Notes under the pieces: generated by a model | What the model saw: the letters and a program-made list of their open reading frames with translations, nothing else | Databases searched by the model: none | What the model was told of the DNA's origin: nothing | Program-made: the position numbers and the translations under genes | Shown: piece by piece, positions 4,924 through 26,085 of the stretch | Layout of the letters: each line of letters begins with the position of its first letter | Position numbering within the stretch: the stretch's first letter is position 1 | IMG/VR virus record: IMGVR_UViG_3300032335_001108 | Span: 1-27,483 of that record | Reading direction: 5' to 3' (one strand) | Origin: a virus | Lineage: Duplodnaviria > Caudoviricetes | Length of the DNA stretch: 27,483 nucleotides

Positions 4924-5589
4924 GTGTCCACATACGCGGAACTTTCCAGCGCACTTCAGGCGACGCTAGAGAACGACTTCCCAACGTCTGTGGGCACTGC
5001 TCCCTTGACGTCGGCGGAGCAGATCGCGCTGTTCTTCAGGAACGCTGAACTTCGGATACAGAACGCGGTCCAGCTCCCGGTGTCCCGGAAGACCGGGACT
5101 GTTACGACTGTGGCCAACACCTCTACGGTAGCGACACCTGCGGACTGGTTGGCGAGCTATTCCGTCGCCCTGATCACACCCGTGACCCTCGCCTACAACT
5201 TCCTGCTCAACAAAGACGTTGAGTACATCCGGGAGGCTTTTCCAGCCGTGCTGTCCACCGGGACGCCGCTGTATTACGCCCTGCAAGACAACGATACTTT
5301 TCTCCTCGGCCCTACGCCGGACGCCACCTACACGCTGTCGCTGAACTACTATTATTACCCTGAGTCTATCACGACGGCAGGTACGTCTTGGATCGGCGAT
5401 ACTTTCCCGAATGTCCTGCTCTACGCCGCTCTGGTCGAGGGCTACACCTTCATGAAGGGCGAAGCTGACGTCGTTGCTCAGTACGAAAAGCTCTACAGCG
5501 ACGGTCTGGACGAGCTGAAGCAGTTCGCTGAAGGTATGAATAGGCAGGATACTTACCGCACGCAGCAAGTTAGGTACCCAGTGCGATGA
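4924..5589 (+). CDS. Head-tail adaptor / tail tubular A-like protein (paralogue 2)
   Basis: TYAEL..FFRNAELRI N-terminus, GTPLYYA..LGPTPDATY core and PNVLLYAALVEGYTFMK C-terminal helix; TAAGGA SD. Confidence 0.7.
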   Translation: MSTYAELSSALQATLENDFPTSVGTAPLTSAEQIALFFRNAELRIQNAVQLPVSRKTGTVTTVANTSTVATPADWLASYSVALITPVTLAYNFLLNKDVEYIREAFPAVLSTGTPLYYALQDNDTFLLGPTPDATYTLSLNYYYYPESITTAGTSWIGDTFPNVLLYAALVEGYTFMKGEADVVAQYEKLYSDGLDELKQFAEGMNRQDTYRTQQVRYPVR

Positions 5590-6059: not shown

Positions 6060-6524
6060 ATGCAGCTTTCCCCGAACTTCTCGCTCGAAGAGTTTACCAA
6101 GTCCCAGACAGGCGCTCGCCTCGGGATCGCCAACACACCTTCGGCGGCTCACCTTGCTAACCTGAAGACCCTCTGCGCAAAAGTGCTGGAGCCGGTACGG
6201 GCCCACTACGGTAAGCCGGTCCACATCAACAGCGGCTATCGCGGCCCTGCGCTTAACAAGGCGGTCGGCGGTGCCTCAACGAGCCAGCACTGCGCGGGAG
6301 AAGCTGCGGATATCGAAATCCCGGGCGTGGCAAACGGTGCCTTGGCTAAATGGATCGAGGCGAACCTCGAATACGACCAGCTTATCCTCGAGTGCTACAG
6401 CGCGGGTGTCCCTAACAGTGGTTGGGTTCATGTGAGCTTCAAAGCAGGCCACAACCGCAAGCAAGAGCTCACCGCAACGGTGGTGGGCGGCAAGATGAAA
6501 TACGCAGCAGGGCTGCATCTATAG
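6060..6524 (+). CDS. Endolysin, peptidase M15 (Zn peptidase, M15_3-like)
   Basis: LSPNFSLEEF..INSGYR..LNKAVGGASTSQHCAGEAADI..WVHVS; His, Asp and His Zn ligands are present; followed by holin and spanins. Confidence 0.9.
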   Translation: MQLSPNFSLEEFTKSQTGARLGIANTPSAAHLANLKTLCAKVLEPVRAHYGKPVHINSGYRGPALNKAVGGASTSQHCAGEAADIEIPGVANGALAKWIEANLEYDQLILECYSAGVPNSGWVHVSFKAGHNRKQELTATVVGGKMKYAAGLHL

Positions 6525-6533
6525 GGGCGGGTC

Positions 6534-6782
6534 ATGGGTAATCATTTGTTCAAACTCTTTGCGGGCAAGGACAACAAGACGCTTGATCTCGGTCGAGTGC
6601 TTTGGGCGATGAGCTTTATCTCGTACTTCTCCGCTACGTTCTTCGCGGTGTTCATGCACAACCAAGCGCTGGACTACGCCATGTGGGCCGTGGGGGCGGG
6701 CACTCTTCTCGCCGCAGGCGGCGGAGCTCTGGCGCTTAAGTCCGGCACGGAGCCGGACCACAAAGATACCCCCGATGCTTAA
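6534..6782 (+). CDS. Putative holin
   Basis: 82 aa with two hydrophobic segments (VLWAMSFISYFSATFFAVFM; AMWAVGAGTLLAAGGGALAL) and a charged C-terminus; lies between endolysin and spanins. Confidence 0.7.
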   Translation: MGNHLFKLFAGKDNKTLDLGRVLWAMSFISYFSATFFAVFMHNQALDYAMWAVGAGTLLAAGGGALALKSGTEPDHKDTPDA

Positions 6783-7167
6783 CTTCCTGCGCCCCTACCT
6801 GATCTACATTGTTCTCGCCGGTGCGGTGCTCTCAGCGGGGGCCGGGTACAAGCTCCGCGACATGCAGTGCAAAGCAGACGCAGCCAAGCAGATCGCCAAG
6901 GCGGCTGAAGAGCGCCTCAAGCTGCAGGCCGTTATCGACACGAAGTCCGCCCTCTACGAGGCGGAGCGGGATAGGGCCAGCGTAGTTAACACCGAACGAC
7001 ACAACACGATCAGGGAGATTTTCCGCGATGCGCCTGCCGTTAGTCCTGACTGTGCTGCTCCCCCTGAGCTTGGGCGCGTGCTCACACAAAGCGTTCTGGA
7101 CGCCAACAGTGCCGCGACTGGCACCCAATCTGGCAGCTCCGTGCCCGCCGCTGAACACACCCCCTGA
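6775..7167 (+). CDS. i-spanin (Rz-like)
   Basis: N-terminal TM helix (YLIYIVLAGAVLSAGAGY), coiled-coil body and C-proximal Cys. Confidence 0.8.
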   Translation: MLNFLRPYLIYIVLAGAVLSAGAGYKLRDMQCKADAAKQIAKAAEERLKLQAVIDTKSALYEAERDRASVVNTERHNTIREIFRDAPAVSPDCAAPPELGRVLTQSVLDANSAATGTQSGSSVPAAEHTP

Positions 7168-10192: not shown

Positions 10193-12106
10193 ATGTCGTT
10201 CCTGAAGCTCCAGTTCCGCCCCGGAGTTAACCGGGACCAAACCAACTACTCTAGCGAGGGTGGGTGGTACGAGTGCGACAAGATCAGGTTTCGCTCTGGC
10301 TACCCGGAAAAGATCGGCGGCTGGGTCAAGTCCACGCCTACGGCGTTTTTCGGTGTGTGCCGCCAGCTGTGGAACTGGGTTACGTCTTACTCAGATAACT
10401 TCCTGTCGCTCGGCACCAACAACAAGGTCTACATCGAGTCTGGCGGTGTTTTTAACGACATTACGCCGCTGCGGGCGACTACCCCCACACTCACTAGCCC
10501 GAACACCAACAACTGCGTGGCTACGACCAACGGCTCGAACGTGGTCACCATCAACCTCGGCACGACACACGATGCAGAGACGGGGTCTTTCGTTACGATT
10601 TCCGGGGTTACCGGCACTGTAGGTGGCGTACCCGATACCGAGATTAACGCTAACCACCAGATCACGGTTATCGACACCGACTCGTTCTCGTTCTCGGTGA
10701 GCACGGCGGCGTCTTCGACGGTTGCTGCGGGCGGCGGCACCTCCATCACCATCAGCTTTGAAATCGCTCCCGGCTACGCTACCACGACGGCGGGCTACGG
10801 CTGGGGTGCGGGCACTTGGGGGCGCGGCTACTGGGGTCTTGGCTCTACCACCCCGGTGCTTTTCCCGCAGCGCGATTGGTGGTTCGACAACTTCGACAAC
10901 GACCTAGTCATGAACATCCGCAACGGGGCTGGCTACTGGTGGGTTCGGGGCACTACAGTTGACCCCGGCTCTGCGCTCGCGACGCGGGCTATAGCGCTAT
11001 CTACCTACGCCAGTAACGAGGGCTTCACCGCCAACTCGGTCCCCGTGAAGATCATGCAGCTTCTGGTGTCCCAGAACGACAAGCACTTGATCGCTTTCGG
11101 CGCGGTGCCGTTCGGTAGCACTTCAGAGGCGGACTTCGATCCGTTGCTTATCCGTTGGGCAGACCAAGACACTCCGGGGGATTGGACCCCGTCCACTACC
11201 AACACTGCAGGCGACCTGCGCGTCTCCCGGGGCTCCAGCATCATTCGGGCTATGCCTACCCGGCAGGAAATCCTCGTCTGGACAGATACACACCTTTACT
11301 CGCTCCAGTTCCTCGGGACGTCAGACGTCTTCGGTCTGCAGGAGTACGCAGACAACGTCTCTATCATTTCGTCTAGGGCGTGCGCTACGGCGGCCAACGT
11401 CACCTACTGGATGGGGCAAGACAAGTTTTACGCCTACACCGGTCGGGTGGAGACCCTCCCCTGCACCCTGCGCAACCACGTCTTCAAGAACATCAACACC
11501 GAGCAAACCGACCAAATCGTCTGCGGTACGAACGAAGGTTGGAACGAAATCTGGTGGTTCTACCCGAGTGCGCAGTCTAGCTGGAACGACAGTTACGTCG
11601 TGTTTAACCACCTCGAAAAAATCTGGTACTACGGCACCATCGAGCGTACGGCGTGGCTAGACACTCCCCTGCGCGCCTACCCACAAGCCTGTAACAGCGA
11701 CTCGACCGCAGCCTCAGGGTACCTCTACAGCCACGAAGCGGGGCTGGACGACGACGAAATCGCCATGGAAGCCTATATCCAGTCGAACGACTTCGACCTC
11801 GGTGACGGCGACAAGTTCATGCTTACCCGCCGGGTTATTCCGGACGTGGGTTTTTCTGGTTCCACGGCCACCACGCCAGAAGTCACAATGCAGCTGCGCC
11901 CGCGTAACTTCCCCGGCAGCGCGTACAGAGGCGACGCTCAGGACACCCGGAACATCATTGAGTCTTCGGTGGACGTCTACACTGAGCAGGTCTTTATCCG
12001 CGCCCGCGCCCGGCAGATGGCGTTCAAGATCGCTTCTTCTGCGCTCGGAGTGAACTGGCAGGTTGGGTCTCCAAGACTGGACATGCGGGAAGACGGACTC
12101 AAGTAG
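10193..12106 (+). CDS. Tail hub/nozzle protein (P22 gp10 / tail tubular B-like)
   Basis: 637 aa, Trp/aromatic-rich beta-propeller-like sequence (KIGGW, LIRWADQD, YWMGQDKFYAYTG, EIWWFYPS, RTAWLD), ending RARARQ..DG; located before needle and ejection genes. Confidence 0.75.
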   Translation: MSFLKLQFRPGVNRDQTNYSSEGGWYECDKIRFRSGYPEKIGGWVKSTPTAFFGVCRQLWNWVTSYSDNFLSLGTNNKVYIESGGVFNDITPLRATTPTLTSPNTNNCVATTNGSNVVTINLGTTHDAETGSFVTISGVTGTVGGVPDTEINANHQITVIDTDSFSFSVSTAASSTVAAGGGTSITISFEIAPGYATTTAGYGWGAGTWGRGYWGLGSTTPVLFPQRDWWFDNFDNDLVMNIRNGAGYWWVRGTTVDPGSALATRAIALSTYASNEGFTANSVPVKIMQLLVSQNDKHLIAFGAVPFGSTSEADFDPLLIRWADQDTPGDWTPSTTNTAGDLRVSRGSSIIRAMPTRQEILVWTDTHLYSLQFLGTSDVFGLQEYADNVSIISSRACATAANVTYWMGQDKFYAYTGRVETLPCTLRNHVFKNINTEQTDQIVCGTNEGWNEIWWFYPSAQSSWNDSYVVFNHLEKIWYYGTIERTAWLDTPLRAYPQACNSDSTAASGYLYSHEAGLDDDEIAMEAYIQSNDFDLGDGDKFMLTRRVIPDVGFSGSTATTPEVTMQLRPRNFPGSAYRGDAQDTRNIIESSVDVYTEQVFIRARARQMAFKIASSALGVNWQVGSPRLDMREDGLK

Positions 12107-12878: not shown

Positions 12879-14780
12879 ATGTTCAACGCCCCTTCGCCAT
12901 CCTTTACGAGCCCCCAAACGCTTCCGACGCGCCCCAGCGCCGCCGCGCCGCAGCCGTCCCCCTACCCCGCGCCCACCCCGCCCGCGCAGTTTACCGCTCC
13001 GCCCCCGCAACCTCTGCAGGGGGGTTTCTTTGGTGGTATGAACCAGCGCCCGGCCCCGGGCGTCAGCCCGCGTCTTCCGGGTATGATGTCTACACCTGCC
13101 AGTACAGCCCAGAGCATGCAGGGTTATGGCCGTGGTAACGACACCATGCTTATGCACGTCACCCCCGGTGAAGTGCAGGGACTCCAAGCACTGGCGCAGC
13201 GGCACGGCGGCTCGCTGACCACTAACCCCCATACGGGTCTGCCGGAGGCTGGGTTCCTCGAAGATATTCTCCCGACACTCGCGGGCGGCTTGCTTACGCT
13301 GATCCCCGGCGTGGGCCCCCTTCTGGCGGCGGGTATTGTGGGCGGCGGTACCGGACTGGCTACGGGCAGCCTTGAGAAAGGGCTTATGGCGGGTCTCGGC
13401 GCGTTCGGCGGTGCGTCACTTGGTAGCGCGCTTGGTGGTCTGGGTGCGGGGGCGGGTGCTACCAGCGCCGCTAACACTGTGCTTCCTACTACTCTCCCCG
13501 AACTCGCGACCACAGGTATTACCGCTGCCCCCGCCCCCGCCAATGTGGCGGCGCTACTGCCCGGTGCCCCTACTTCGCTTATCGCCCCCACTGCGGCATC
13601 CCCCGCCGCATCCGCAGCCACGCAGGCAATCATCCCCGCCCCTATTGCTCCCGGTGCTACGGGGCTCGGTACAGGTCCGTCCATATCGCAGCTTGCGGCG
13701 CAGAAGCTCGGCGCGGATATCCCCACCGCAGCCGCTGTAGAGCCCGGACTACTCGAAAACGTGTTCGGAAGGACAGGTGCGCGAACCGTGAAAGACTTCG
13801 GGGGGAACTTCGCGCAAGCTGCGTCTGGTGGGGACAAAATCAGCCCGATGCGCACAGGTCTCGCTGCGCTTGGCGCTTCTGCTCCCATTCTGCAGGCCAT
13901 GCAGCCGACCTACGAGCCCTACAAGAAAGAAGATGACTACAACTACGAGGGTCCGTACACCCCGACCCCGCGCACGCCGCGCTTCCGGGGCCCCAACGCC
14001 AACCTCGGGGATAGCTCGGAGTTCAGCTACTTCGACAACGTCAACCCCTACCCGGGTTTCCAGCCCGCCCCCAAGGTCTTCGCTGAAGGTGGTGAAGTAG
14101 CCCGAACAGAAGACCGTGCACTCCGCATGCCTGCTGCGGGATATCAGGCCGGTATGGGCGCGGAACACAACTACAACTTCCGACCGGTGACCCCCGCTGC
14201 GAGCATGACGGGGATGCCTGCCACCACAAAACCCAAAACCCAAGACATCATGGGGCTATTCAGGGTCACGCTCCCTAAGGACAAGAAAAACTCCGACGAC
14301 GCGCCCAACATGCGCAAGTACCGCTACGACCCGCGAACGCAGAGCGTCATGGATGACGGCAACTACGGCGGTGCCATGGGCGAGCCCGGTGGACTGGAGG
14401 GCTTGAATATCGGGCGCTTCGCCGCAGGCGGTAACGTGAACCTGCGCGACGGCTCCTTCGTTGTGGATGCACGCACGGTGTCTGAGCTGGGTAATGGTAG
14501 CAGCGGCGCGGGGCAGGAGCTTCTTGCTCGCCATGGAGGTCAGCCGATCCGGGGTCCGGGGGATGGCGTCAGCGACTCTATTCCGGCTAGTATCGGCGGA
14601 CGCCAACGCGCGAAGGTCGCCCGTGACGAGGTTAAGTTCGACCCGGAAGCGGTGCAGCGGCTCGGTGGCGGCGATCTGCAGCGTGGGGCCAAGAAGCTCT
14701 ACGCGCTCATGGAAAAAGCCCAGAAGGCCCGTAAGGCAGCGGGTCGGGGGCAAGACACGAAGCTGAGGAAGAAGCTGTGA
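12879..14780 (+). CDS. Putative ejection (pilot) protein 1
   Basis: Likely start is ATG 12879 (AAGG SD upstream) rather than 12831. Pro-rich N-terminus, GRGNDTMLMHVTPGE..NPHTGLPE motif, Gly/Ala hydrophobic segment and C-terminal GPGDGVSDSIPA domain. Confidence 0.7.
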   Translation: MFNAPSPSFTSPQTLPTRPSAAAPQPSPYPAPTPPAQFTAPPPQPLQGGFFGGMNQRPAPGVSPRLPGMMSTPASTAQSMQGYGRGNDTMLMHVTPGEVQGLQALAQRHGGSLTTNPHTGLPEAGFLEDILPTLAGGLLTLIPGVGPLLAAGIVGGGTGLATGSLEKGLMAGLGAFGGASLGSALGGLGAGAGATSAANTVLPTTLPELATTGITAAPAPANVAALLPGAPTSLIAPTAASPAASAATQAIIPAPIAPGATGLGTGPSISQLAAQKLGADIPTAAAVEPGLLENVFGRTGARTVKDFGGNFAQAASGGDKISPMRTGLAALGASAPILQAMQPTYEPYKKEDDYNYEGPYTPTPRTPRFRGPNANLGDSSEFSYFDNVNPYPGFQPAPKVFAEGGEVARTEDRALRMPAAGYQAGMGAEHNYNFRPVTPAASMTGMPATTKPKTQDIMGLFRVTLPKDKKNSDDAPNMRKYRYDPRTQSVMDDGNYGGAMGEPGGLEGLNIGRFAAGGNVNLRDGSFVVDARTVSELGNGSSGAGQELLARHGGQPIRGPGDGVSDSIPASIGGRQRAKVARDEVKFDPEAVQRLGGGDLQRGAKKLYALMEKAQKARKAAGRGQDTKLRKKL

Positions 14781-15256
14781 GAGAAATGCTAGAGTTCGAT
14801 ACTCCTGAATGGCAAGCACTTCGCAACGAGAAGCTCCAAGAGTGGATACAAGACCCTTACGCCATCCGGTTTATCGTAGACTTCGCTGACACCTGCGAAC
14901 TGTTCGACGACATGATCGACCGGGATAAACCCCTCGAAGACGACCACATCGTGCGGGTGCTGTTCAAAGTCCTTACCGAAATCCCGCTGAACCCTTTTTT
15001 CGACCGCTTCAAGAGCCAGCTGATCCCCATCATAGTCACCGGGATTAACGCTTGGCTGGACTCCACCGCGTTGGAAAACGGGTCTGACAACGATAAGGTT
15101 TTCGCTTACGTGCTCCGAGACTGGTACATGGAGTTTGTGGCGTACGTCGTGTATCTTACCCGGGGCAGAGACTACATGCGGGACACGAGCATGGAAATCC
15201 GCCAGTTCTTTACTCACCACGAAACGCTCGAAGAGTATAAGGAAAAAATGGCATGA
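14777..15256 (+). CDS. Small helical DDxxD-motif protein (isoprenoid synthase/prenyltransferase-like, putative)
   Basis: 159 aa, acidic and apparently all-alpha, with FDDMIDRD at the end of an amphipathic helix; overlaps both neighbours by 4 nt. The ORF is secure; the function is inferred. Confidence 0.55.
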   Translation: MREMLEFDTPEWQALRNEKLQEWIQDPYAIRFIVDFADTCELFDDMIDRDKPLEDDHIVRVLFKVLTEIPLNPFFDRFKSQLIPIIVTGINAWLDSTALENGSDNDKVFAYVLRDWYMEFVAYVVYLTRGRDYMRDTSMEIRQFFTHHETLEEYKEKMA

Positions 15257-17568
15257 GTGGTGGGGGCGATAAAGCGCAGCCGCAAGAGCAGCAGGTTACT
15301 ACCACAACCAGCAACCTGCCCGAATACGCTCGTCCGTATTTCGAGAACCTCGTCAACCGGGCGCAGGCAGAGTCTTATCGCGAGTACACCCCTTACCAAG
15401 ACCAGCGCATTGCTGGCTTTACCCCCGGACAAACTCAAGTCCAGCAGCAGACGATGGGGATGCAAGCCCCCGGGCAGTACGGCATGGCTTCCGGGCTAGC
15501 TGGCGCTTCGGGTCTTGGGTCTATGGCTGCGGGTCAGTACGCACCCGCGCAGGTGAACAACCAGCAGATCGGCCAGCCTAACCTGCTGAACTACCAGATG
15601 CGCAACGCGCAGAACGTCTACGGCATGGCGCAGGTCGCGCCTCAGATCGCCACCGCCCAGACGGGCTATAACCCTAACCTGCAGAACCTGCAGATGGGAG
15701 CGGCGGATCAAGTCGCTGCGCAGAACTACAACGCCCCGCAGATGGGCGTCTCTCGTACGAACTACGCTCCCGGGCTTCAGCAGTACCTGATGGCCAACGC
15801 GCCGGACGTTACGGCGCAGCAGTACAACTCGCCTCAGATGCAGGCGGCGGCCACTACCTTCTCGCCAGAGCTGCAGCAAATCCTTATGGGCCCGGCGGGT
15901 CGGGTCTCTGGTTCGCAGCTTACCGCTGCGGATACACCGCAGATCACCGCTGCTCAGACCAGCTTCGATCCTAACCTGCAGCAGTACCAGATGGGTGCTC
16001 CCGACGAGTTCGGTCAGGCTCAGGCGTCCCAGTACATGTCCCCGTATGTCCAGAGCGTGCTGGATGTGCAGAAGCGCGAAGCCGTCACCGACGCGCGCAA
16101 GGCGCAGATCAACCAAGACCTCGGCGCTGCCCGTCAGGGTACCTATGGTGGCTCTCGTCAGCTTCTGGCGGGCATGGAGCGCGAGCGAGCGCTGGGTCAA
16201 CAACTCGGGGATATCCAAGCTCGCGGGCTCCAGTCTGCGTACGAAAATGCGCAGTCTCAGTTTGAGCGCGACCGCGCGGCAGGGATGAGCGCCGAAGGTC
16301 AGAACCTTCAAGCACGCCTTGGCGTGCAACAACTGGGGGCCCAGACCGGCGTCCAGACGGCGCTGGCTAATCTCTCTTCGGAACAGCAGGCGCGGGTGCA
16401 GAACCAAGCGGCCCTGCTCCAGAACCAAGGGATGAACGCCGAGCAGGCGATGCGCGCGGCGCTGGCCAACCAGCAAGCCGAGCTTACTGTGGGGCAACAG
16501 AACCAGCAGGCAGGACTGCAAACGCAGCAGCTGGGGACTCAGACCGGACTCCAAACGGCGCTGGCTAACCTGACGTCCGAGCAGCAGGCCAACGTCCAGA
16601 ACCAAGCGGCACAACTGCAAACGCAGGGAATGAACGCCGAACAGGCGATGCGTGCAGCGCTGTCTAACCAGCAGGCGGCTCTTACTGTCGGGCAGCAGAA
16701 CCAACAGGCTCAGCTCAACACTCAACAGCTGGGGACTCAGACGGGCCTTCAGACGGCGCTGGCTAACCTGTCCTCGGAGCAGCAGGCTCAAGTCCAGAAC
16801 CAAGCGGCACAACTGCAAACGCAGGGGCTTAACGCTGAACAGGCCATGCGCGCGGCGCTGGCCAACCAGCAAGCTGGACTCACGGTCGGACAACAGAACC
16901 TGCAGGCGGGGCTGCAAACCCAGCAACTCGGCGCTCAAACGGGTGTCCAGACGGCGCTGGCTAACCTGTCCTCGGCACAACAAGCGAACGTGCAGAACCA
17001 AGCGGCCATCCTGCAAACGCAGGGGCTTAACGCTGAACAGGCGATGCGCGCGGCGCTGGCCAACCAGCAGGCCCAACTGACGACGGGGCAACAGAACCTG
17101 CAGGCTAACCTGCAGACGCAGCAGCTTGGCGCTCAAACCGGCCTGCAAGCTCTTATGGCTAACCAGCAGACTAACCTCGAAGCCCAACGGTTGGCGGAGC
17201 AGTCGCGTCAGTTTGGGGGTAACCTCGGCCTGCAGGGTCTGGCGCAAGCCAACCAGAGTGCACAGACGCTCAGCAACATCGGCTCGGCTCAGCAGCAAGC
17301 GGAACTGTCTCGTCTCGCCGCGCAAGGGAACGTGGCCGCGCAGCAGCAGCTTCTGCAGCAGCAGCAAATGGACATGGCGTACGCCGACTTCCTGCGCCAG
17401 CGCGACTACCCGATGGAACAGCTGGGTTACTACAGTAATATCCTGCGCGGTCTCCCGGTTGGTCTCGGTTCTACCGCGACGACGTATGGACAACCCCCGT
17501 CCGTTGCTGCACAGATCGGTGGTGTTGGGCTCGGCGCTACGGCGCTTTCTCAGATGGCACGAGGCTAA
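15253..17568 (+). CDS. Gln-rich putative ejection / DNA-conduit protein 2
   Basis: 771 aa starting MSGGG; LPEYARPY, YQDQRIAGFT, YMSPY, GTYGGSRQ and QRDYP motifs typical of podovirus DNA-transfer proteins; glycine-rich hydrophobic C-terminus. Confidence 0.75.
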   Translation: MSGGGDKAQPQEQQVTTTTSNLPEYARPYFENLVNRAQAESYREYTPYQDQRIAGFTPGQTQVQQQTMGMQAPGQYGMASGLAGASGLGSMAAGQYAPAQVNNQQIGQPNLLNYQMRNAQNVYGMAQVAPQIATAQTGYNPNLQNLQMGAADQVAAQNYNAPQMGVSRTNYAPGLQQYLMANAPDVTAQQYNSPQMQAAATTFSPELQQILMGPAGRVSGSQLTAADTPQITAAQTSFDPNLQQYQMGAPDEFGQAQASQYMSPYVQSVLDVQKREAVTDARKAQINQDLGAARQGTYGGSRQLLAGMERERALGQQLGDIQARGLQSAYENAQSQFERDRAAGMSAEGQNLQARLGVQQLGAQTGVQTALANLSSEQQARVQNQAALLQNQGMNAEQAMRAALANQQAELTVGQQNQQAGLQTQQLGTQTGLQTALANLTSEQQANVQNQAAQLQTQGMNAEQAMRAALSNQQAALTVGQQNQQAQLNTQQLGTQTGLQTALANLSSEQQAQVQNQAAQLQTQGLNAEQAMRAALANQQAGLTVGQQNLQAGLQTQQLGAQTGVQTALANLSSAQQANVQNQAAILQTQGLNAEQAMRAALANQQAQLTTGQQNLQANLQTQQLGAQTGLQALMANQQTNLEAQRLAEQSRQFGGNLGLQGLAQANQSAQTLSNIGSAQQQAELSRLAAQGNVAAQQQLLQQQQMDMAYADFLRQRDYPMEQLGYYSNILRGLPVGLGSTATTYGQPPSVAAQIGGVGLGATALSQMARG
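15637..16011 (+). repeat. Four degenerate ~32-aa repeats
   Basis: Units start at 15637, 15733, 15829 and 15934, pattern xPQ[IM]xxxxTx[YF]xPxLQxxxM. Confidence 0.8.
16327..17169 (+). repeat. 198-nt (66-aa) tandem repeat, 4 full copies plus a partial
   Basis: QQLG starts at 16327, 16525, 16723, 16921 and 17119. Confidence 0.95.
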
Positions 17569-17571
17569 ACG

Positions 17572-19746
17572 ATGGCTACTAAACCGTTCAGTCTTCAGTC
17601 GCCCGAGCAGATCGCCAAGGACTACGGCGGTAACAAGCAGAAGATCGCCCAAGCTGCACAGTCTGGCCTTCTGGACCCCACTGCCGCCGTCATGGCGGGG
17701 ATGTTCATCGACCGCATGCGCTCTGCACAAACGCAGGAGCAGGGGCCCCCGACTACCGTGGCCCAGCAGGTCTTCGCGCCTCCGCAACCGCCTCAGGGCG
17801 CTCCACCTCCGATGATGGGCCAGCCGGGTATGGCTCCCCCGATGGGTGCCCCTATGCCTCCGCCTCCCCCCGCGGCTCCCCCGATGGGTGCTCCGCCTGT
17901 TGGTATGGCTAGCGGCGGTCTAACGGCGCTCCCGCTTCCTGACAACATGTTCGACGAGCCTGACGGCATGGGCTACGCGGGTGGCGGCATCGTGGCTTTC
18001 GCTGAAGGTGGTGAAGCTGACGACGAACTTACGCTTGGAGACCGACTGCGCGAGCAGTTCAGAGGTCCTGAAGACCCCACGTATTACGGTCGGCCTATGA
18101 CGGCGGCGGATATGCGCGAACAGTTTGGCATCCCCGAGCCCAAGAAGCCGAAGCCCGAACTCCCCACTCTCGGAGACCGACTGCGCGAGCAGTTCAGAGG
18201 CCCAGAGGACCCTACATATTACGGTCGGCCCATGACGGCGGCGGATATGCGCGGGACGTTCGGTATCCCCGAACCCAAGAAGGCTGAGCGCCCTGCGTTT
18301 CGCCAACAAGACAGTCGGTCGCGCTCCATGCTAACCGGCGCCCCCCCTGCACGCCCGTCGGAAGCGGCTTCTACTCGCGCCCTCCCTCTTCCCGAAGGAT
18401 ACGTCCCTTTCGGCGGCGAAGGGACCGGTATCTCCCGCCTGTTGGGCGGTTTGGGGGACGAGTCTTTCGCGGCTAAAGAGTTCCAAAAGGCCACGGCGCA
18501 GTACTACCGCGACCGCGCAGCGTACGATGCTGCGAGGGACAGGAACGCGCGCATCGCTGCGGTCGGCGGCGGGAAGCCGCAACCTCTGCCACCTAAGCCG
18601 GTCATGCCGAAGCAGAGTGATTTTAAGGTCGCCCCCAAGGCTAAGCCCGCCGCCCCCGCCGCTAAACCTGCCGCCGCTCCCGCTCGTGCGGGTAATACCC
18701 CCGCCGCTTCTGCCGGTATCCTTGATTTGTCGGGCGGGCAATCGCGTGAGTCGATCCCGAGGGGGACCCTTTACCGCGACCCGCAGGGCAACATTCGCCG
18801 TAATGACAACGGCGATAAGGGCAACCCGATTGTAACCGCCCCCGCTCCCCGCGTTATCGCTCCCCCTCCCCCTGCTCCCCGTGTTGGCGGCGGTGCTCCT
18901 ACGCCTCCCCGTGTTGGTGCCCCTGCCCCCGCAGGTCCGGCTCTGCCTGCTTCTCCTGCCGCCGCTCCCGGCGCTACCGCCGCTCCCGCCGCTCCCGGTG
19001 CTCCTCGGACTCTCGGTGGCGTGCCCGCCGACGCGGCGGCCATCATGGCGCAGCAAAAACAGCTGGCCCCGCAGTCTACGGCTGCTACCGACGCTATGCG
19101 GGATTACTACCAGCGCATGTCCTCACCTGAGGCGCTGGCGGCTCAGAAAAAGCAGGATATGTGGGCTACGTTGGCGCAGATCGGCTTTGGTATGGCGGGT
19201 TCTAACTCTCCGTCGTTCCTGCAGGCTGCTGGACAATCAGCGTCGGCTGCCATGCCGGGTATGATGCAGGCCAACAGGGACCGCAAAGCCCAAGAAGCCG
19301 CGTCCGTGCGCGGTATGTTCGATATCGAGACGGCTACCAACAAGGCTAATACCGACCTGTATCAGTACGCGCAGAGACTCGCTGTCGAAGTAGACAGGGG
19401 TATTAAGACGCAGGAGCAGGCGGATGCAGAGCTCGCCCTTAGAGCAAGGCAAGTTGACGAACAAATTCGTAGCAACAAAGCTGGTGAGGATATTGATAGG
19501 GGGAAAATTAACGCGCGTGGGTCCGGCGGCGGTAGGGCGCCCAAAGAGACCGTCAGCCAGTATTGGGCGCGACGTAGGGTAGAAGCCAATGCTGGAGACC
19601 CAGAGGCCCAAGATGAAGTCGCTGCCTACGACCAAAATAGGACGCGCAGCGGCGGTAACCCGTACCAACGCGGGACCGCCTCTACAGGCAGCACGCCCGC
19701 CCGGGATAGGAAGCCCATAACTGACTTCGACACCAGAGGGAGGTAA
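17572..19746 (+). CDS. Pro/Ala-rich putative ejection protein 3
   Basis: 724 aa; PTTVAQQV, MASGGL and YAGGGIVAFAEGG motifs, amphipathic WATLAQIGFGMAG segment, C-terminal coiled coil. Confidence 0.7.
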   Translation: MATKPFSLQSPEQIAKDYGGNKQKIAQAAQSGLLDPTAAVMAGMFIDRMRSAQTQEQGPPTTVAQQVFAPPQPPQGAPPPMMGQPGMAPPMGAPMPPPPPAAPPMGAPPVGMASGGLTALPLPDNMFDEPDGMGYAGGGIVAFAEGGEADDELTLGDRLREQFRGPEDPTYYGRPMTAADMREQFGIPEPKKPKPELPTLGDRLREQFRGPEDPTYYGRPMTAADMRGTFGIPEPKKAERPAFRQQDSRSRSMLTGAPPARPSEAASTRALPLPEGYVPFGGEGTGISRLLGGLGDESFAAKEFQKATAQYYRDRAAYDAARDRNARIAAVGGGKPQPLPPKPVMPKQSDFKVAPKAKPAAPAAKPAAAPARAGNTPAASAGILDLSGGQSRESIPRGTLYRDPQGNIRRNDNGDKGNPIVTAPAPRVIAPPPPAPRVGGGAPTPPRVGAPAPAGPALPASPAAAPGATAAPAAPGAPRTLGGVPADAAAIMAQQKQLAPQSTAATDAMRDYYQRMSSPEALAAQKKQDMWATLAQIGFGMAGSNSPSFLQAAGQSASAAMPGMMQANRDRKAQEAASVRGMFDIETATNKANTDLYQYAQRLAVEVDRGIKTQEQADAELALRARQVDEQIRSNKAGEDIDRGKINARGSGGGRAPKETVSQYWARRRVEANAGDPEAQDEVAAYDQNRTRSGGNPYQRGTASTGSTPARDRKPITDFDTRGR
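18031..18282 (+). repeat. 117-nt (39-aa) direct duplication, period 135 nt
   Basis: TLGDRLREQFRGPEDPTYYGRPMTAADMR[EQ/GT]FGIPEPKK at 18031 and 18166. Confidence 0.95.
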
Positions 19747-19752
19747 GCCGCT

Positions 19753-22700
19753 ATGGGTTTCGACGTAGCGGGTGCGAGGAAGGCGGGGTACTCGGACGCG
19801 GAGATCGCCGCGCATCTGGCCAAGCAGCGTAAGTTCGACATGGCTGGCGCGCGCAAAGCCGGGTACGGCGACGCCGAGATCGTCGCTTACCTAGCTGGTA
19901 AGCCAGCGAAGAAGTCCGGCCCGTTCCAAGGTGTGGTCGACGTCGGCGCGCAGGCACTGGAAGGCGGCCTTGGGTTTTCGCGCGCGGTCACTGATGTGTT
20001 CGGGGCGTCGAACCCCGCGTCTGACTGGCTTAGCGAGCGTACGGAAGATGTGCAGGGATGGCTGTCCCCGGAAGCGCAGCGCAAGCGCGCTGCGTCTGCC
20101 GCTCGGCTCGAAGAGACCAAGGATGGCACGATCCCGGAGCAGATCGTCGGGGGGTTCCGTGCCTTCGGAGAGAACCCGTTGGGTAACATCGCGCAGGGGG
20201 TTGGCTCTGTAGCCGCGCCCCTAGCGCTTACTGCCGGGGCTATCGCTAGTCTACCAGCCAGCGCACCCGCAGGTGCTGCGGCATTGGTCGGGACGGGTGT
20301 CGCCGTAGGCACTGGCGCTCTCGCGGGCGCGGGCTCTGTTAAGGGCTCTGTATACGATGCCGTGTACAGCGCTATGACCGAGAACAATGTGCCACCCGCA
20401 CAGGCGGAGGAAGCCGCGAAGCGCGCGCAGAGCTACGGCGGGGAGAACCTAGATCAAATCTTGCTGGCCGCAGGTATCGGCGGCGCTGCGGGCGTGCTCG
20501 GCGCTGAAACAGCCGCGATCCGTTCTTCGGTAATCCGACGCCTGACGGGCGGGAACGTAGCCGAAGCCGCCGCCAGACAAGCGACCAAGGGCTTAGCGCG
20601 CCGCGCGGGAGAGACGGCGTTTATTGAAGGCGGCACCGAGGGGCTACAAGGGGGGCAAGAACAGTTTGCGCAGAACCTCGCCACTCGCCGGGAAGGCTTC
20701 GACACCCCGCTTATGCAGGGTGTCGCGGGCTCCGCTACCCTAGAGGGCACTATAGGGGCGCTCCTCGGCGCGGGAGCTGGCGCTATGGAGCGCACTGCCC
20801 CCCGCGCTCCTACACCGGACATCACCGAAGACGGCGCTCCTGTTGGGGTAGACACTTCCCTACCCCCCGCTGTTCCATCCGCCACCGAAGGTCTCTTCAC
20901 GCCCTATACTCCCCGTGATCGCGGCCCTGTGCGACCTATAACGGGCGATGCAGATATAGATGCTGTACTTACTTCGTATGGCTTTAACCCTGAGAACATC
21001 GCTGGTGTAGCGCCGCAACAGGGAGAGGTTGTCCTTCCTGAAGGCGTAGCCCCGGCTACGAAGCGTGGGCGAAAAGCTGCGCCGGTAGCAGAAGCTCCGC
21101 TGGAAGCGGAGGCCGCGCCGGTAGAAGAAACCGTAGCAATAGCCCCGGCTACGAAGCGTGGACGAAAAGCTGCGCCGGTAGCAGAAGCTGCGCCGGTAGC
21201 AGAAGCTGCGCAGGTAGAAGAAGCGACCCCCGCTGAACGGTTTGATGTAGCTGCGGTAGAAGCAGCCAGAGCGCTTGGGCTGGATTACACCGGGGAAAGG
21301 GTCTTTACCGCAGCGGCGCTAATGCACCGGATGGAGCCTGATAAGCTTGCGGATATCTACGCCGCTGCTGAGAACGAGCCCCTCACAAGAAAGACAATCG
21401 AAGACGCTATAAAGTTCGTTGAGGGTATCGGTGCCCCGGCTAAAGCCGCTTCGCAAGCGGACATGCCTGCTGCGCCCAAGTTCTCTATCGTCGAAGGGGT
21501 TGACGTTATCGGGGATAAACAAATCCCCCACTACAAGGCGCAGGTAGACGGAAAAACGGTGAGCATCCTGAGCTCGCTGGAAGAAGCGCAGGCCAAGCTT
21601 GTCTCTCTGGGAGCGCCGCCATCGGCTGCTCCTGCTACCGCCCCGCTTACCCCTGAAAACTATGTTGCTAAAGCGGTGGAACAGGCCAAGGAGCTTGCGC
21701 CGACTTCTCTGGACGACCCTCTGCAGATGAAAGCCTTTGTCGCCGGGGCTAAGGCTGCGGCTACAGGGAAGAAGGTAAACCCCACAAGCCGTAAAGCAGA
21801 CCAGAGAGACTCTTACGCTGCAGGTGCGGGCGCTGTCGCCCTCCTGCAAAAGGCTCCGCAGGATACTCCCGCCGCTGACCTTACTCCTGCCCCTCAGGCT
21901 GCTCCCGTCATCGCCCCGCAGGTCGCGCCGGTAGAAGAAGCCGCTCCTGCCCCCGCCCCTAAAGCAAAAAAAACCAAGCCGGTCTTCACTCCCGACGAGG
22001 TTGCTCAGGCTGCGGTAGAGGTGATCAATACCGGTGCTACAGAAGCTGGCGTTGCATCCCCCCTGCTCGACAAGAACCAAATGCTTGCCTTCGTTGCGGG
22101 CGCTAAAGCCGCCGCTGAGGGTAAGAAGGTAAACCCTGCCTCACGTGCAGCCGACCAAAGAGACGCCTACACTTCCGGTGCTGACACCGCAAAACGCTTC
22201 CTCGACGACTGGGCCGCCAAGAGAGCTGCTCTTACGGAAGGCGTACCTGTCCAACAAATCCCGGAGAAGGTTAAGGGGATCGCTGCCGGGCGCGCGGCTC
22301 CCGATAGTGGGCCTAGAGACTTCAGCAAGGTTAACAGGCAGGACCAGCCGGAGTTTTTCGGCGACCTCGACCAAGCGCAAGAAGACATCCGCAAAGCCAT
22401 AACGACTGCGCAGAACGCCAGAAAAGCGGGACAGATTGATAACGCCGGTCTAACCGCCGTACTGGCTTACGGACGGCCCGAGACGGAGGTTCGTCCAGAC
22501 GGCACCGAGAAAATTATCCGTAACCCCAACGCGCGCCTCATGCTGCAGGAGCTTGAGAAACAAAAAACGCGGGGCACCCCGGAAGGCATTAGCGCGGAAC
22601 CGTCAGACTTCCGTACCGGTAGAGAAGCTCTGTACTCTGACCAGCCAGTGGAGGAAGGTCCGCCTCTCCCTATGGGAGATGTTGTTAAAATCGTTAAGGC

Positions 22701-25700
22701 TGCCTCGCGTGGGTGGACTAACCCGCCGCTTATCAACGTCGTGCCGTCGTTTAAAGACCTACCAGAGTGGATGCGGAAGGACGCTGACAAAAACACAGTA
22801 AACGGTATCCTTGGGGCAACCGTAAAGCAAGGCAGAGAAGTTTACATTATTGCTGACAGGCACTCCTCACGAGAAGGGGTGGTGGCTACTCTGTTCCACG
22901 AGGCGCTGGGGCACTCTGGGCTCGCCAAAGTGTTTAAGGAGAGGCTACGCGCTGTTATGAGCGCTATCTACAACAGCAACCAGAACGCCAAAAAAGCTGC
23001 AGACGAGTGGCTCGCCGCCAGACCGAAGTTCCGCAAAAACCTCCCACAACCCGCGCGTCTATCCTACGCTGTAGAGGAAGTGCTGGCGCTGGGTGCGCAA
23101 GAAGGAGCCTCTAAGCTGTCTTGGTACCGAGGCGCGATGGCTACCGTGCGCAACTTTATCCGCAGCATTGGAGAGCGAGCTGGCCTCCACCTAAAGTACT
23201 CCGACAAAGACATTCTGGCTATTCTGGCCGCCGCTAGAGAAGAAGTTGAGACAGGCGTAGCCACCCGCAAGCCATACAATCCGGACTTGCCTGACGAGGC
23301 TATGTACGCGAGCAAGGGTAAGGGTAAGGCCGCTCCTCCCGCTCCCCCCGCTCCTGCTTATCCTGCCGACAGCGCTATAGATAAGCAGCTGGCTAAAACC
23401 AAGGTAGCGCTCAACGACGCCTTTGCGGACGGGGCTAGGCACGACGCCAAACTCGCCAAGGTACTGGGGCGGCCACTAGCGGCGCACGAAACCCTCGATG
23501 AGCCCCTGCGCATGGTCAGGAGTATGTCTGCGGGTATCAAGCAGACTGTGCTCCACGAGTTTATCCAGCCGCTTGAAGAAATGATGCGCAAGCTGGGGGT
23601 GGACTACAACGAGTTTGGTTTGTTCCTCTGGGCTCGTTCTGCCCCAGACCGCAACAAAATGGTCGCGGATAGAAGCAAGGATGTGCCGCCGCCGAACAAC
23701 GGCTCTGGCCTGACAAACGCAGAAGCCGCCGGGCACCTGCAGAGGTTCCACGCAGAAGGCAAGCTGGCCAAGATGCAGCAGCTGGCCAAGATACACGACG
23801 CGCTGGTTGACTACCTCCTAGCTGAGCGGGTCAATGCTGGCCTCCTATCGCAGGACCAAGCAAAAAATCTGCGTGATGAGCAGCCGTTCTACGCCGCGCT
23901 GAAGGGCCGCGCCAAGGCCGGAGACATGCTCGTCTCTGAGGATGAAGACCCACATGCGGAGTTCGATACCCCCAGTCAGGGGATGGGTGGCTCTGAGTTT
24001 ATCCGTGCCAGAGGGCGTGAGAGCGTCCCCCTTCACCCGCTTGTAAACCTGCACGCTGACTCTAGTGGTGTGGCCAACAGCATCACTAAAAACGCCGTTC
24101 TACGTCGCGCTGTAGAGCAGATAGACGCCTTCCCCACTATGGAGAGGGACGTTGCTACTTACTATACCAAAAGCAAACCGAAGATAATCAACGGCAACAA
24201 GCAAAATATGATCTCGTATGCTAGGAACAACAACGAAATATACACTGCCAAGGTAGACGGTGAGCCGGTCTATATTGAGTTCCGCCCCACAGAGGGCGGC
24301 GCTGCACTGCGCCGCGCCTTCGAAAACATGAAGGTCAAACCCCTTGAGGGGTTCATGGGCGGCTATGCCAGTGTTGCCTCTATCCTGCGCCAAGCCTTGA
24401 CGACCAAGAACATCGCCTACCTGCTCGGCCCTGCGTTCATACGGGACGTTCTTGACTCCGTGACGTCGGCGTATGCTGCAGAGACCTCGGCGGGCAGTCC
24501 GGCATTGGGCAAGAAACTGGGCAACCGCGTCGTTAAGCGGATGTTCACACCTGCAGTCATGGGGGCTGTGCGGCGCTACGTCCGGAACGAAAAAGGCACG
24601 ACGCAAGCTCAACAGGCTATGGACCGGCTCATGGTCCAGATGATCAGGGACGGCGGCTCTGTCAGCCAGTCGCTTCTCAGCGGAGCGGAGAACATCGCCA
24701 AGGACGTCGCCAAGCGCGCCAAGCGTTACGAGTCCATGAGCAAAGGCGATCCCCTCGCTCTGGCCAAGCAGGGCTTCCACGTTGTTAACGGGGCACTGGA
24801 CGGCATCGCTCACTTCAACGACCTGTACGGGCGCTTCGCTACCTACGCTTCTGCTCTGGAGCTCGGTATTGGCCGTAAAGGCGCGGCTGCTCTGGCGCTT
24901 AACTCGTCTCTGGACCTGACGCGCCGGGGTACGGCTGCCCCTGTTATGGACAACCTGTTCTTCTTCTTCAGTCCGACCGTGGAAGGCGGACGCAAGTTCC
25001 TGAACATGGCCTTCACGTCCAAGAACGGCATGAAGTTCATGGGCGGCATGTTCATGCTCGGTGCGCTCTCTACCCTGTGGAACTACTCCATGGCGGGCGG
25101 GGATGACGATGAAGACGGGCGTTCCAACTTCCGGGATGTGAGCAAGGTCACGCGTCAGACACGCACGGTATGGTTCTACGGCGATGGCGCGGACGACTAC
25201 GTTGCTATCCCGCTGGGCTTTATGGGTGCCTTGCCGCAGTACATGGGCTCCAAGGCCATGGAGGCGGTTATCGGGGAGACGTCACCTGAAGAGGCCGGTG
25301 CCTCTATTACTAGCTCTATAGCAGACATACTCTCTGCTACGTTTGCTGCGCTATCCCCGATCCGCCCCACTGGCGGCGATGTACAGGAGGGGGCTGCATC
25401 TGTCGTGCCTAACGTCATCAAGCCGTTTACAGATACGATGATTAACCGCAACTTCTTCGGGTCGCCTATCCATAACCAGAAGTACAGCAACCAAGTTTCC
25501 GACGCCTCGTCTGGTCGCGAGTCGACCGGGGCCGTATGGAAGTGGCTCGCGCAGACTGTCAACGATATGAGCGGGGGCGCGGGCACTGTGCCCGGCAAGG
25601 CAGACTTCTACCCGGAGTCCTACCGCTACATCTTTGAGTCTCTCGTCGGCGGGTCCTACAAATTCGTTAAGGATACAGTGAAGTTTGTGAGTGGTACGCC

Positions 25701-26085
25701 CGAGGACGAGGGGATAGCTGCCGTGCCTCTCCTGCGTGGCTTCGTCGGTAAAGGCAGCAAGTACCGCCCGACGAGTAATTTCTACGAAAACACCACCCAG
25801 ATGCAGGCCATAGACTACGCGTATAGGAACGACACAGACGAAGAAGTGGCGGCTATGCAAGAAAGGTACCCGGTAAAGGCAGACCCCCGAGTCGCAGAAG
25901 CCTACCACAACGCCGTGCTCGCCCTGAAAGCTATCAGCAAGGACCGCAACGAGGCTTTGGCGCTCTACCCGGATGATCCTGCGGAGAGAAAGCGCATCAT
26001 CGAAGCTGCGCGCGCGGACAGCAGTGAGGTCCACAAGAGCTTCAACCGCCTGTACAACCAAGTGCGCAAAGAGAAGGGCGTATAA
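19753..26085 (+). CDS. Large polyvalent ejection protein with zincin-like metallopeptidase motif and LPD38-like C-terminal region
   Basis: 2110 aa; HEALGH (22897-22914) plus downstream EEVLA; C-terminal DLTRRG..FFFSPTVEG, YVAIPLGF and NRNFFGSPI patterns of LPD38-bearing proteins; last gene of the virion operon. Confidence 0.75.
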   Translation: MGFDVAGARKAGYSDAEIAAHLAKQRKFDMAGARKAGYGDAEIVAYLAGKPAKKSGPFQGVVDVGAQALEGGLGFSRAVTDVFGASNPASDWLSERTEDVQGWLSPEAQRKRAASAARLEETKDGTIPEQIVGGFRAFGENPLGNIAQGVGSVAAPLALTAGAIASLPASAPAGAAALVGTGVAVGTGALAGAGSVKGSVYDAVYSAMTENNVPPAQAEEAAKRAQSYGGENLDQILLAAGIGGAAGVLGAETAAIRSSVIRRLTGGNVAEAAARQATKGLARRAGETAFIEGGTEGLQGGQEQFAQNLATRREGFDTPLMQGVAGSATLEGTIGALLGAGAGAMERTAPRAPTPDITEDGAPVGVDTSLPPAVPSATEGLFTPYTPRDRGPVRPITGDADIDAVLTSYGFNPENIAGVAPQQGEVVLPEGVAPATKRGRKAAPVAEAPLEAEAAPVEETVAIAPATKRGRKAAPVAEAAPVAEAAQVEEATPAERFDVAAVEAARALGLDYTGERVFTAAALMHRMEPDKLADIYAAAENEPLTRKTIEDAIKFVEGIGAPAKAASQADMPAAPKFSIVEGVDVIGDKQIPHYKAQVDGKTVSILSSLEEAQAKLVSLGAPPSAAPATAPLTPENYVAKAVEQAKELAPTSLDDPLQMKAFVAGAKAAATGKKVNPTSRKADQRDSYAAGAGAVALLQKAPQDTPAADLTPAPQAAPVIAPQVAPVEEAAPAPAPKAKKTKPVFTPDEVAQAAVEVINTGATEAGVASPLLDKNQMLAFVAGAKAAAEGKKVNPASRAADQRDAYTSGADTAKRFLDDWAAKRAALTEGVPVQQIPEKVKGIAAGRAAPDSGPRDFSKVNRQDQPEFFGDLDQAQEDIRKAITTAQNARKAGQIDNAGLTAVLAYGRPETEVRPDGTEKIIRNPNARLMLQELEKQKTRGTPEGISAEPSDFRTGREALYSDQPVEEGPPLPMGDVVKIVKAASRGWTNPPLINVVPSFKDLPEWMRKDADKNTVNGILGATVKQGREVYIIADRHSSREGVVATLFHEALGHSGLAKVFKERLRAVMSAIYNSNQNAKKAADEWLAARPKFRKNLPQPARLSYAVEEVLALGAQEGASKLSWYRGAMATVRNFIRSIGERAGLHLKYSDKDILAILAAAREEVETGVATRKPYNPDLPDEAMYASKGKGKAAPPAPPAPAYPADSAIDKQLAKTKVALNDAFADGARHDAKLAKVLGRPLAAHETLDEPLRMVRSMSAGIKQTVLHEFIQPLEEMMRKLGVDYNEFGLFLWARSAPDRNKMVADRSKDVPPPNNGSGLTNAEAAGHLQRFHAEGKLAKMQQLAKIHDALVDYLLAERVNAGLLSQDQAKNLRDEQPFYAALKGRAKAGDMLVSEDEDPHAEFDTPSQGMGGSEFIRARGRESVPLHPLVNLHADSSGVANSITKNAVLRRAVEQIDAFPTMERDVATYYTKSKPKIINGNKQNMISYARNNNEIYTAKVDGEPVYIEFRPTEGGAALRRAFENMKVKPLEGFMGGYASVASILRQALTTKNIAYLLGPAFIRDVLDSVTSAYAAETSAGSPALGKKLGNRVVKRMFTPAVMGAVRRYVRNEKGTTQAQQAMDRLMVQMIRDGGSVSQSLLSGAENIAKDVAKRAKRYESMSKGDPLALAKQGFHVVNGALDGIAHFNDLYGRFATYASALELGIGRKGAAALALNSSLDLTRRGTAAPVMDNLFFFFSPTVEGGRKFLNMAFTSKNGMKFMGGMFMLGALSTLWNYSMAGGDDDEDGRSNFRDVSKVTRQTRTVWFYGDGADDYVAIPLGFMGALPQYMGSKAMEAVIGETSPEEAGASITSSIADILSATFAALSPIRPTGGDVQEGAASVVPNVIKPFTDTMINRNFFGSPIHNQKYSNQVSDASSGRESTGAVWKWLAQTVNDMSGGAGTVPGKADFYPESYRYIFESLVGGSYKFVKDTVKFVSGTPEDEGIAAVPLLRGFVGKGSKYRPTSNFYENTTQMQAIDYAYRNDTDEEVAAMQERYPVKADPRVAEAYHNAVLALKAISKDRNEALALYPDDPAERKRIIEAARADSSEVHKSFNRLYNQVRKEKGV

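Follow-up and report, generated by a model that had tools for sequence, protein, structure and literature searches.

A DDxxD gene with a predicted isoprenoid-synthase-like fold exchanges with GNAT-like genes in front of a phage ejection gene

The DDxxD gene and its coupling

The window, by which we mean the whole 27,483-nt stretch of DNA that was analysed, represents the tailed-phage record IMGVR_UViG_3300032335_001108 (Caudoviricetes; completeness about 45%), and our subject is a small gene at 14777..15256 (+) within it, here called the DDxxD helper gene. Its open reading frame (ORF) encodes a 159-aa protein containing ELFDDMIDRD, where GACGACATGATCGAC at 14906-14920 specifies DDMID. With 17 Asp, 15 Glu and a pI of 4.5 the product is acidic, and its predicted structure is all-helical, in agreement with the original prediction. 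The only PHROG family matched is PHROG 21390, of unknown function. An alternative ATG at 14786 would give a product of 156 aa, the length of two of the seven cluster members.

The gene is tightly packed between its neighbours. Its start shares a 4-nt GTGA with the stop of the 12879 ORF, with a Shine-Dalgarno (SD)-like GAGGA 7 nt 5' of the GTG (14765..14780, +), and its stop shares a 4-nt ATGA with the start of the 15253 gene, an overlap that, with an SD-like AAGGA 9 nt 5' of the ATG (15239..15256, +), couples helper to ejection gene; both overlaps had been noted from the sequence, as had the MSGGG start of the downstream protein. The downstream gene (15253..17568, +) encodes the first ejection (pilot) protein, our proposed substrate, which has 771 aa, an MSGGGDK N-terminus, 0 Trp and 0 Cys. 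Its match to the DNA ejection family phrog_4287 is weak (E 0.0024), and an orthologue reaches E 3e-16. The upstream gene (12879..14780, +) encodes a Gly/Ala/Pro-rich protein of 633 aa with no family match in Pfam or PHROG, hence no support for an ejection role. The overlaps with both neighbours were thus borne out, and the ejection type for 15253 and not for 12879. Several internal Gln-rich repeats (QLGxQTGLQTALANL...) expand the 15253 protein to 771 aa; orthologues at L001-L003 have about 376 aa.

Conservation of the Asp motif

A DDxxD motif occurred in 15.3% of 20,000 shuffles of the 14777 protein, and DDxxDxD in 1.4%. In so acidic a protein DDxxD is at chance level, so a test of conservation was needed, and we rejected the motif alone as evidence. 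On the sequence evidence, its conservation, rather than its presence, is the real signal.

Relatives numbered 230, then 589 in a further search, and a wider search gave 873 clusters at 50% identity. From the latter we aligned 150 sequences including the query and dropped 13 outside 125-210 aa, leaving 137 distant relatives. D44, D45, D48 and D50 are kept in all 120 close homologues and in 136, 133, 137 and 130 of the 137 distant relatives, respectively; the full DDxxD is present in 133, so the conservation that the original prediction called for was found. Position 114 is Arg in 123 and Lys in 11. At about 25-50% identity no other polar residue is conserved as well as these four Asp and R/K114, and the remaining acidic positions vary. 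Other hallmarks of isoprenoid enzymes are rare or missing among the 137: an RRG loop after the first Asp-rich motif (FARM) in none, a second DDxxD (the second Asp-rich motif, SARM) in only four, and an NSE/DTE motif ([ND]DxxS/TxxxE after residue 70) in none.

By tblastn, one of 50,697 GenBank phage records matches the query, Achromobacter phage CF418P1 (L011, OQ817832.1, 5369-5842; 32.5%), in which the protein downstream of the DDxxD gene begins MGCMS.

Predicted fold

The AlphaFold2 model of the 14777 protein has eight helices, 0 strands and a pLDDT of 93. We searched it with VIA against a library of 48,161 chains, for which a Z of 13 is the tool's caution level with helical bundles. Chains of the trans-isoprenyl diphosphate synthase (trans-IDS) fold filled the top 14 rows and isoprenoid synthases 30 of the 50 rows, the best match being 9kp1_A (Z 8.1, rmsd 4.0, 139 residues aligned). 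An independent distant homologue, P0205, gave a consistent picture: with its domain 2, isoprenoid-synthase-fold chains took the top 22 and 47 of the 50 rows (best Z 8.8; rmsd 3.5-3.7; 139-152 aligned), among them terpene cyclases and a UbiA homologue (its residues 4-160). In the ESM Atlas, DUF2600, HEPPP_synt_1 and polyprenyl_synt are among the closest named clusters (0.77-0.78), which we treat as a lead only. A viral structure library returned four proteins, uncharacterised or unnamed.

Several observations limit this assignment or weigh against a prenyltransferase activity. The Z values are below 13 and only 1.2-1.7 above the best unrelated row, and the best matches are small subunits of heptaprenyl diphosphate synthase (HepPPS), which are non-catalytic. 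Foldseek against the PDB found nothing at E<=0.001, although its best-TM rows were still geranylgeranyl diphosphate synthases (TMq 0.52-0.53). We detected no sequence homology to prenyltransferases in Pfam or NCBIfam and none of relevance in PDB profiles, and hhalign against a shallow profile of 10 IspA/IspB sequences gave a Prob of 2.3%, with 1 of 30 shuffles scoring higher. Taken together, the two models, with moderate Z, make an isoprenoid-synthase-like fold likely, as had been proposed from the sequence, and the protein probably belongs to the wider isoprenoid-synthase fold.

The original prediction also spoke of a half-size synthase. The length is indeed about half that of a synthase, but the model resembles a trimmed-down core that has kept a single metal motif rather than a symmetric half. 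Its predicted helix order would fit helices C-D-E-F-G1/G2-H of the class I core, C to H without the SARM, after loss of the RRG loop and the terminal helices. Natural tandem fusions of the domain occur within one ORF (P0187, P0205, P0227, P0237 and P0283; also L257:3952-4603), and most of their halves retain an Asp motif. In the P0205 tandem model the two domains pack together (pTM 0.79). We rejected a symmetric half dimerising into one full synthase: Foldseek gave no full-length synthase match (TM about 0.13) and VIA aligned one domain per synthase chain, which favours two trimmed cores side by side.

Candidate active site

The FARM-like motif D44-D45-x-x-D48-x-D50 (14906..14926, +) lies at the C-terminal end of helix 27-48 in the model (DSSP). 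A useful reference is the peptide prenyltransferase StheQ, which, according to the accessible part of its description, binds metal by the FARM only and has a donor diphosphate site of D85, D89, D91, K174 and Q212, with D153 near Mg (10.64898/2026.08.29.745113). The single DDxxD, in view of which dimerisation or a non-catalytic role had been considered possible, is thus not a defect and need not imply an obligate dimer.

In helix 73-99, putatively helix F, W93-x-D95-x-N97-x-x-E100 (15053..15076, +) would supply an acid that is likely part of the metal/diphosphate site, judging by its spacing relative to StheQ D153; W93, D95, N97 and E100 are conserved in 124, 92, 87 and 105 of the 137 distant relatives. 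R114 (15116..15118, +), which falls in the gap separating helix 104-113 from helix 117-129, in what may be a kinked helix G, is likely diphosphate-binding (cf. StheQ K174). After helix 131-146, H147-H148-E149 (15215..15223, +) occupies the probable SARM position, is neither DDxxD nor NDxxD, and has Glu at position 149 in 103 relatives, Asp in 16 and Gln in 7. D44/D48/D50, D95, R114 and E149 follow the order of the StheQ donor site with similar spacing (19 vs 21, 35 vs 38); the correspondence is suggested by spacing rather than superposition, on the available account of StheQ. Since RRG is absent in 137/137, the acceptor is probably not isopentenyl diphosphate (IPP). Scanning 22 ORFs of the window, in a record about 45% complete, we found no isoprenyl diphosphate synthase gene; a host partner is possible.

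Exchange with GNAT-like genes

Across the surveyed loci the DDxxD gene lies directly 5' of a pilot/ejection-type gene. Scanning 13 downstream genes, we assigned five to a DNA ejection family, five to a virion structural family and one to a family of unknown function, with two giving no match. The constant partner of the DDxxD gene is the downstream gene, not 12879. Both 15253 and 12879 had been named as partner candidates; the first stands, and 12879 is not favoured as substrate because tail genes occupy the upstream position in many loci.

In podophages, the slot ahead of the first ejection gene is that of internal virion protein A (T7 gp13, P22 gp14), a GNAT-like protein. We ran a reciprocal survey on the 80 best of the 361 stretches that encode an orthologue of the 15253 ejection protein. 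Directly upstream stood a GNAT-like gene in 66, a DDxxD gene in nine and neither in five, consistent with the earlier proposal that the DDxxD gene replaces a GNAT-like gene in the same slot. GNAT detection relied on three profiles, which may miss other subfamilies; the assignment is firm for two subgroups (Pfam Acetyltransf_1; phrog_4470). On a FastTree phylogeny of the ejection proteins (63 non-redundant sequences), we counted 12 changes of helper type, nine of them forced by starred branches.

The two types rarely share a locus. Both occurred within 1.2 kb in 0/80 loci of the reciprocal survey, as a mutually exclusive pair would, but in 3/63 pooled non-redundant loci, and they co-occur in 9/98 distinct DDxxD loci (adjacent in L022, L024, L025, L073, L084, L086 and L102; further apart in L019 and L069). 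We therefore rejected strict mutual exclusion: exclusion at the slot is strong but not absolute. At one GNAT locus, a partial duplicate of the ejection gene (L134:1909-2904) lies between the GNAT gene and the intact copy, which may be an assembly artefact.

What is reported of T7-like particles fits a non-structural helper: in the accessible part of one proteome study, gp14-16 are listed in particles and the gp13 homologue is not (PMC4517105). T7 gp14 is described, in the available text, as the first protein ejected and as going to the outer membrane (PMC8954989).

N-terminus of the partner ejection protein

The first residues of the ejection protein differ with the helper type. At leaderless loci of the 15253 ejection family, the gap between helper and ejection gene is -4 in 38/39 DDxxD loci vs 2/31 GNAT loci; residue 2 is Ser in 38 of the 39 and 7 of the 31, an excess partly forced by the ATGA overlap. 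Lys at residues 2-5 was found at 0 of 39 DDxxD loci and 12 of 31 GNAT loci. When all loci are pooled, 0/116 DDxxD partners and 12/36 GNAT partners have K-G-[GSR] close to the N-terminus or first GG, the GNAT set including a few rows that are not ejection genes.

Close relatives with different helpers allow a sharper comparison. In four of seven such contrasts a Lys-Gly present with the GNAT is lost with the DDxxD gene, in three neither side has Lys, and the reverse was not seen (0/7). The four pairs are L142/L005 (92% identity), L150/L154 (83%), L130/L039 (72%) and L160/L071 (41%). L142 (GNAT) begins MGKGSK where the 15253 protein begins MSGGGDK, and 92 of the next 100 residues are identical; likewise, L150 (GNAT) has GGKGG and its counterpart L154 (DDxxD) has no Lys.

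P22-gp7-like leaders of 15-35 aa before the Gly-rich motif come and go between close relatives (leader-bearing ejection proteins: L100, L102, L116, L117, L131, L144, L150, L152, L154, L159, L198, L250, L254, L255, L264, L267-L269). Just after the leader end, (S/D/N/C)-x-G-G is present in 15/16 true leader-bearing DDxxD partners, a residue class chosen post hoc that three GNAT loci (L150/165/166) match as well. For P22 gp7 itself, the accessible part of the source gives an amber fragment with the N-terminal sequence KGGKG after loss of 20 residues (PMC8402733), which fits the Lys-Gly signature of the GNAT partners.

Cellular copies and fusions

The family also has chromosomal members. In Halomonadaceae and in Achromobacter and related betaproteobacteria, a DDxxD gene lies just after the adhesin gene of a type I secretion system (T1SS), between LapA-type adhesin and lapG/lapD-like genes (L096, L099, L103, L105, L109, L111, L114, L119, L213, L219, L224-L225, L228-L230, L232-L234), the Lap matches being strong but below the NCBIfam cut-offs. 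After removal of redundancy, 12 Lap copies group in a single starred clade that also contains one prophage copy; they retain DDxxDxD, LR and HxE. A terminator-like hairpin lies between adhesin and DDxxD gene in the Lap locus. With prophages included, the family was found in 3/401 genomes sampled from the phylum and in 19/251 and 6/251 from the two families. One further member, P0192 (385 aa, one contig), is a fusion in which an S-adenosylmethionine (SAM) methyltransferase domain precedes the DDxxD domain; no locus giving its genomic context was found.

Proposed function and its alternatives

We infer catalysis, donor, acceptor and purpose as follows. The 14777 protein would be a minimal cytoplasmic isoprenoid-synthase-like enzyme in which DDxxDxD, via Mg2+, and Arg114 likely bind a host prenyl diphosphate. 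The likely target of the prenyl group would be the Gly-rich N-terminal stretch of the 15253 ejection protein, which is co-translated, and most simply the free N-terminal amine after removal of Met or leader, which we propose because it is the only nucleophile common to all partners. Such a modification could help the first ejected protein to be packaged or to enter the outer membrane, and the DDxxD helper would be a functional analogue of the slot's GNAT-like gene, with prenyl diphosphate replacing acyl-CoA. That the protein is a transferase dependent on Mg2+ and prenyl diphosphate, with the N-terminal peptide of its coupled ejection partner as substrate, we rate at a little short of an even chance.

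A number of points tell against it. The trans-IDS-like peptide prenyltransferases characterised so far all target Trp, according to the accessible part of PMC13290415, and the 15253 and 12879 proteins contain none. No single acceptor side chain is common to the partners, whose N-termini include MSGGG, MGWNS, MPNP and MAQY; we also rejected a general rule of Ser2 O-prenylation, since residue 2 varies where the ATGA overlap is lost. The co-variation of helper and N-terminus may reflect physical linkage of the helper and the first codons, and the rows are not independent. In P22, on what is available of the gp7 study, the readable KGGKG indicates that the alpha-amine is not fully blocked. On the GNAT side, the largest group is weakly assigned (phrog_1249 E 0.02, GCN5 E 0.24; 12-66% Acetyltransf_1 in its Atlas clusters at 0.91-0.95), and we found no paper in the literature searched showing that a slot GNAT acylates anything.

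Some of this evidence would suit a non-catalytic chaperone or assembly factor, which we regard as rather unlikely. The fold would then be a scaffold that binds the N-terminal peptide of the nascent ejection protein, perhaps via a metal held by the Asp motif, and either maintains its solubility or brings it to the procapsid, with the GNAT-like alternatives also serving as binding scaffolds. HepPPS small subunits as best structural matches, the tight translational coupling (which suggests near 1:1 output) and the sequenceable N-terminus of P22 gp7, as far as the available text describes it (PMC8402733), would agree with this, as would the fact that both known contexts, ejection proteins and T1SS adhesins, involve proteins threaded unfolded through a channel. 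Yet four Asp and an Arg that stay near-invariant while the partners diverge widely form an active-site pattern, untypical of an interface; the motif is retained in the Lap clade despite a different neighbour, and a slot filled by two unrelated enzyme folds suggests chemistry.

That chemistry could be of another kind, with a different diphosphate donor (nucleotide or phospholipid precursor) or a metal-dependent processing of the leader or N-terminus, since all that a DDxxD-Mg site implies is that the ligand is a diphosphate or a metal. In many partners a P22-gp7-like leader stops just ahead of (S/D/N/C)-x-G-G (15/16 of the true leader-bearing DDxxD partners), and 20 residues are removed from P22 gp7 in the accessible account (PMC8402733). 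We nevertheless think it unlikely, given that the gene is kept with leaderless partners (64 ATGA cases), that the structural matches are specifically prenyl-diphosphate enzymes, and that the residue class was chosen post hoc and also matches GNAT loci. A small-molecule isoprenoid enzyme, or a subunit redirecting a host prenyl synthase, whose place in the ejection operon would mean late expression only, draws on the resemblance to heterodimer small subunits, the P0192 methyltransferase fusion and the hairpin splitting the Lap-clade gene from the adhesin gene, but is very improbable because a metabolic gene would be expected neither to be exchanged repeatedly, one for one, with GNAT-like genes at a single position nor to co-vary with the first residues of its neighbour.

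Extending N-terminal prenylation to the whole family gives a broader and distinctly more speculative picture, which we consider doubtful. Short-tailed phages would lipidate their first ejection protein through two interchangeable enzymes, a GNAT that acylates Lys-Gly termini and, for the prenylation of Ser/Asp-x-Gly-Gly termini, the DDxxD family as the smallest enzyme of the isoprenoid-synthase fold. Bacteria might have captured the prenylating version once, for LapA-type adhesins before type I secretion.

Other features of the window

The 14777 gene sits after tail genes and before three large genes. A virion structural (tail) gene at 10193..12106 (+; phrog_3287, E 2e-57) puts the cluster in the tail/ejection module. 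Beyond the 15253 gene lie a second probable ejection protein gene, so named by position only as it has no family match (17572..19746, +; 724 aa), and a gene for a 2110-aa LPD38-bearing polyvalent protein, probably a large ejection protein (19753..26085, +; PF18857, E 3e-23). LPD38 occurs in phage-type polyvalent proteins only, according to the accessible part of PMC5512222.

Elsewhere, two SU10-adaptor-like genes (PF24175; window 3144-3848 and 4924-5589) enclose an endonuclease gene (3858-4364) and a 134-aa ORF, and a further endonuclease gene lies at 2638-3147. Lysis genes (M15 peptidase endolysin, Rz-like spanin) occupy 6060-7167, between head-completion and tail genes.

Significance

What the small gene ahead of the ejection genes does in podophages has been a question for decades. 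In the limited literature searched, mostly without subscription journals, we found no paper linking a phage ejection protein with a prenyltransferase or a phage or virion with an isoprenoid synthase, terpene synthase or DDxxD, none showing prenylation of any phage particle and none assigning an activity to the slot gene. Nothing on the slot gene appears in the accessible parts of PMC9728967, PMC5512222, PMC13552765, PMC12510300, 10.64898/2026.09.03.749273, PMC11784390 or 10.64898/2026.05.18.726046.

An enzyme-like fold that swaps with a GNAT while the partner's N-terminus changes turns ejection-protein modification into a direct mass-spectrometry question, in a family as large as 873 clusters at 50% identity. 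If prenylation is correct, a protein prenyltransferase of 159 aa that uses an acceptor other than Trp would interest both enzyme evolution and the design of peptide lipidation tools. The wider lipidation scheme, if true, would give the first prenylation of a phage virion protein and a non-Trp class of protein prenyltransferase, and would explain T7 gp13 and P22 gp14. With the Lap clade, the family could be tested in bacteria that can be cultivated.

Comparison with known systems

The slot proteins T7 gp13 and P22 gp14 are similar in position, directly before the first ejection gene, and in size, and the DDxxD gene is repeatedly exchanged with the GNAT-like type. In contrast, the 14777 model is all-alpha without strands, where GNATs have an alpha/beta fold, and the Lys-Gly motif that is common in GNAT partners is missing from those of DDxxD genes. 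Acyltransferases of the HlyC/RtxC kind are encoded beside RTX toxin genes, and the Lap clade also sets a small cytoplasmic enzyme-like gene beside a T1SS substrate gene. The fold differs, however, the Lap neighbour is an adhesin rather than a toxin, co-transcription is doubtful, and a comparable role in the Lap clade would be by analogy.

Among structural relatives, chain-elongating trans-isoprenyl diphosphate synthases (PF00348) and MoeN5 are top matches (Z 6.9-8.8) and share a helix-end DDxxD, whereas the DDxxD family lacks RRG (0/137), has a second DDxxD in 4/137 and measures 159 aa vs about 300. The HepPPS small subunit (9kp1_A, 5h9d_D; PF07307) provides the best single structural matches and is similarly trimmed, but is non-catalytic and paired with a large subunit, while the Asp motif is invariant in the 14777 family.

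The closest functional parallel would be the trans-IDS-like peptide prenyltransferases (ComQ IPR033965, PalQ, StheQ, Ord1), with which the protein shares an all-alpha core (predicted here), a single, putatively metal-binding DDxxDxD, a basic residue on the probable helix G and a gene adjoining the presumed peptide substrate. It differs in being about half as long, in lacking detectable sequence homology, in its phage structural context and in its partner without Trp. The NDxxx pseudo-SARM is absent from the family alignments, with H-H-E-T at the likely position, as is the preceding Gln. By sequence-based membership, the 14777 protein falls outside ComQ, the chain-elongating synthases and the terpene cyclases; by prediction, it would act like a ComQ-type enzyme.

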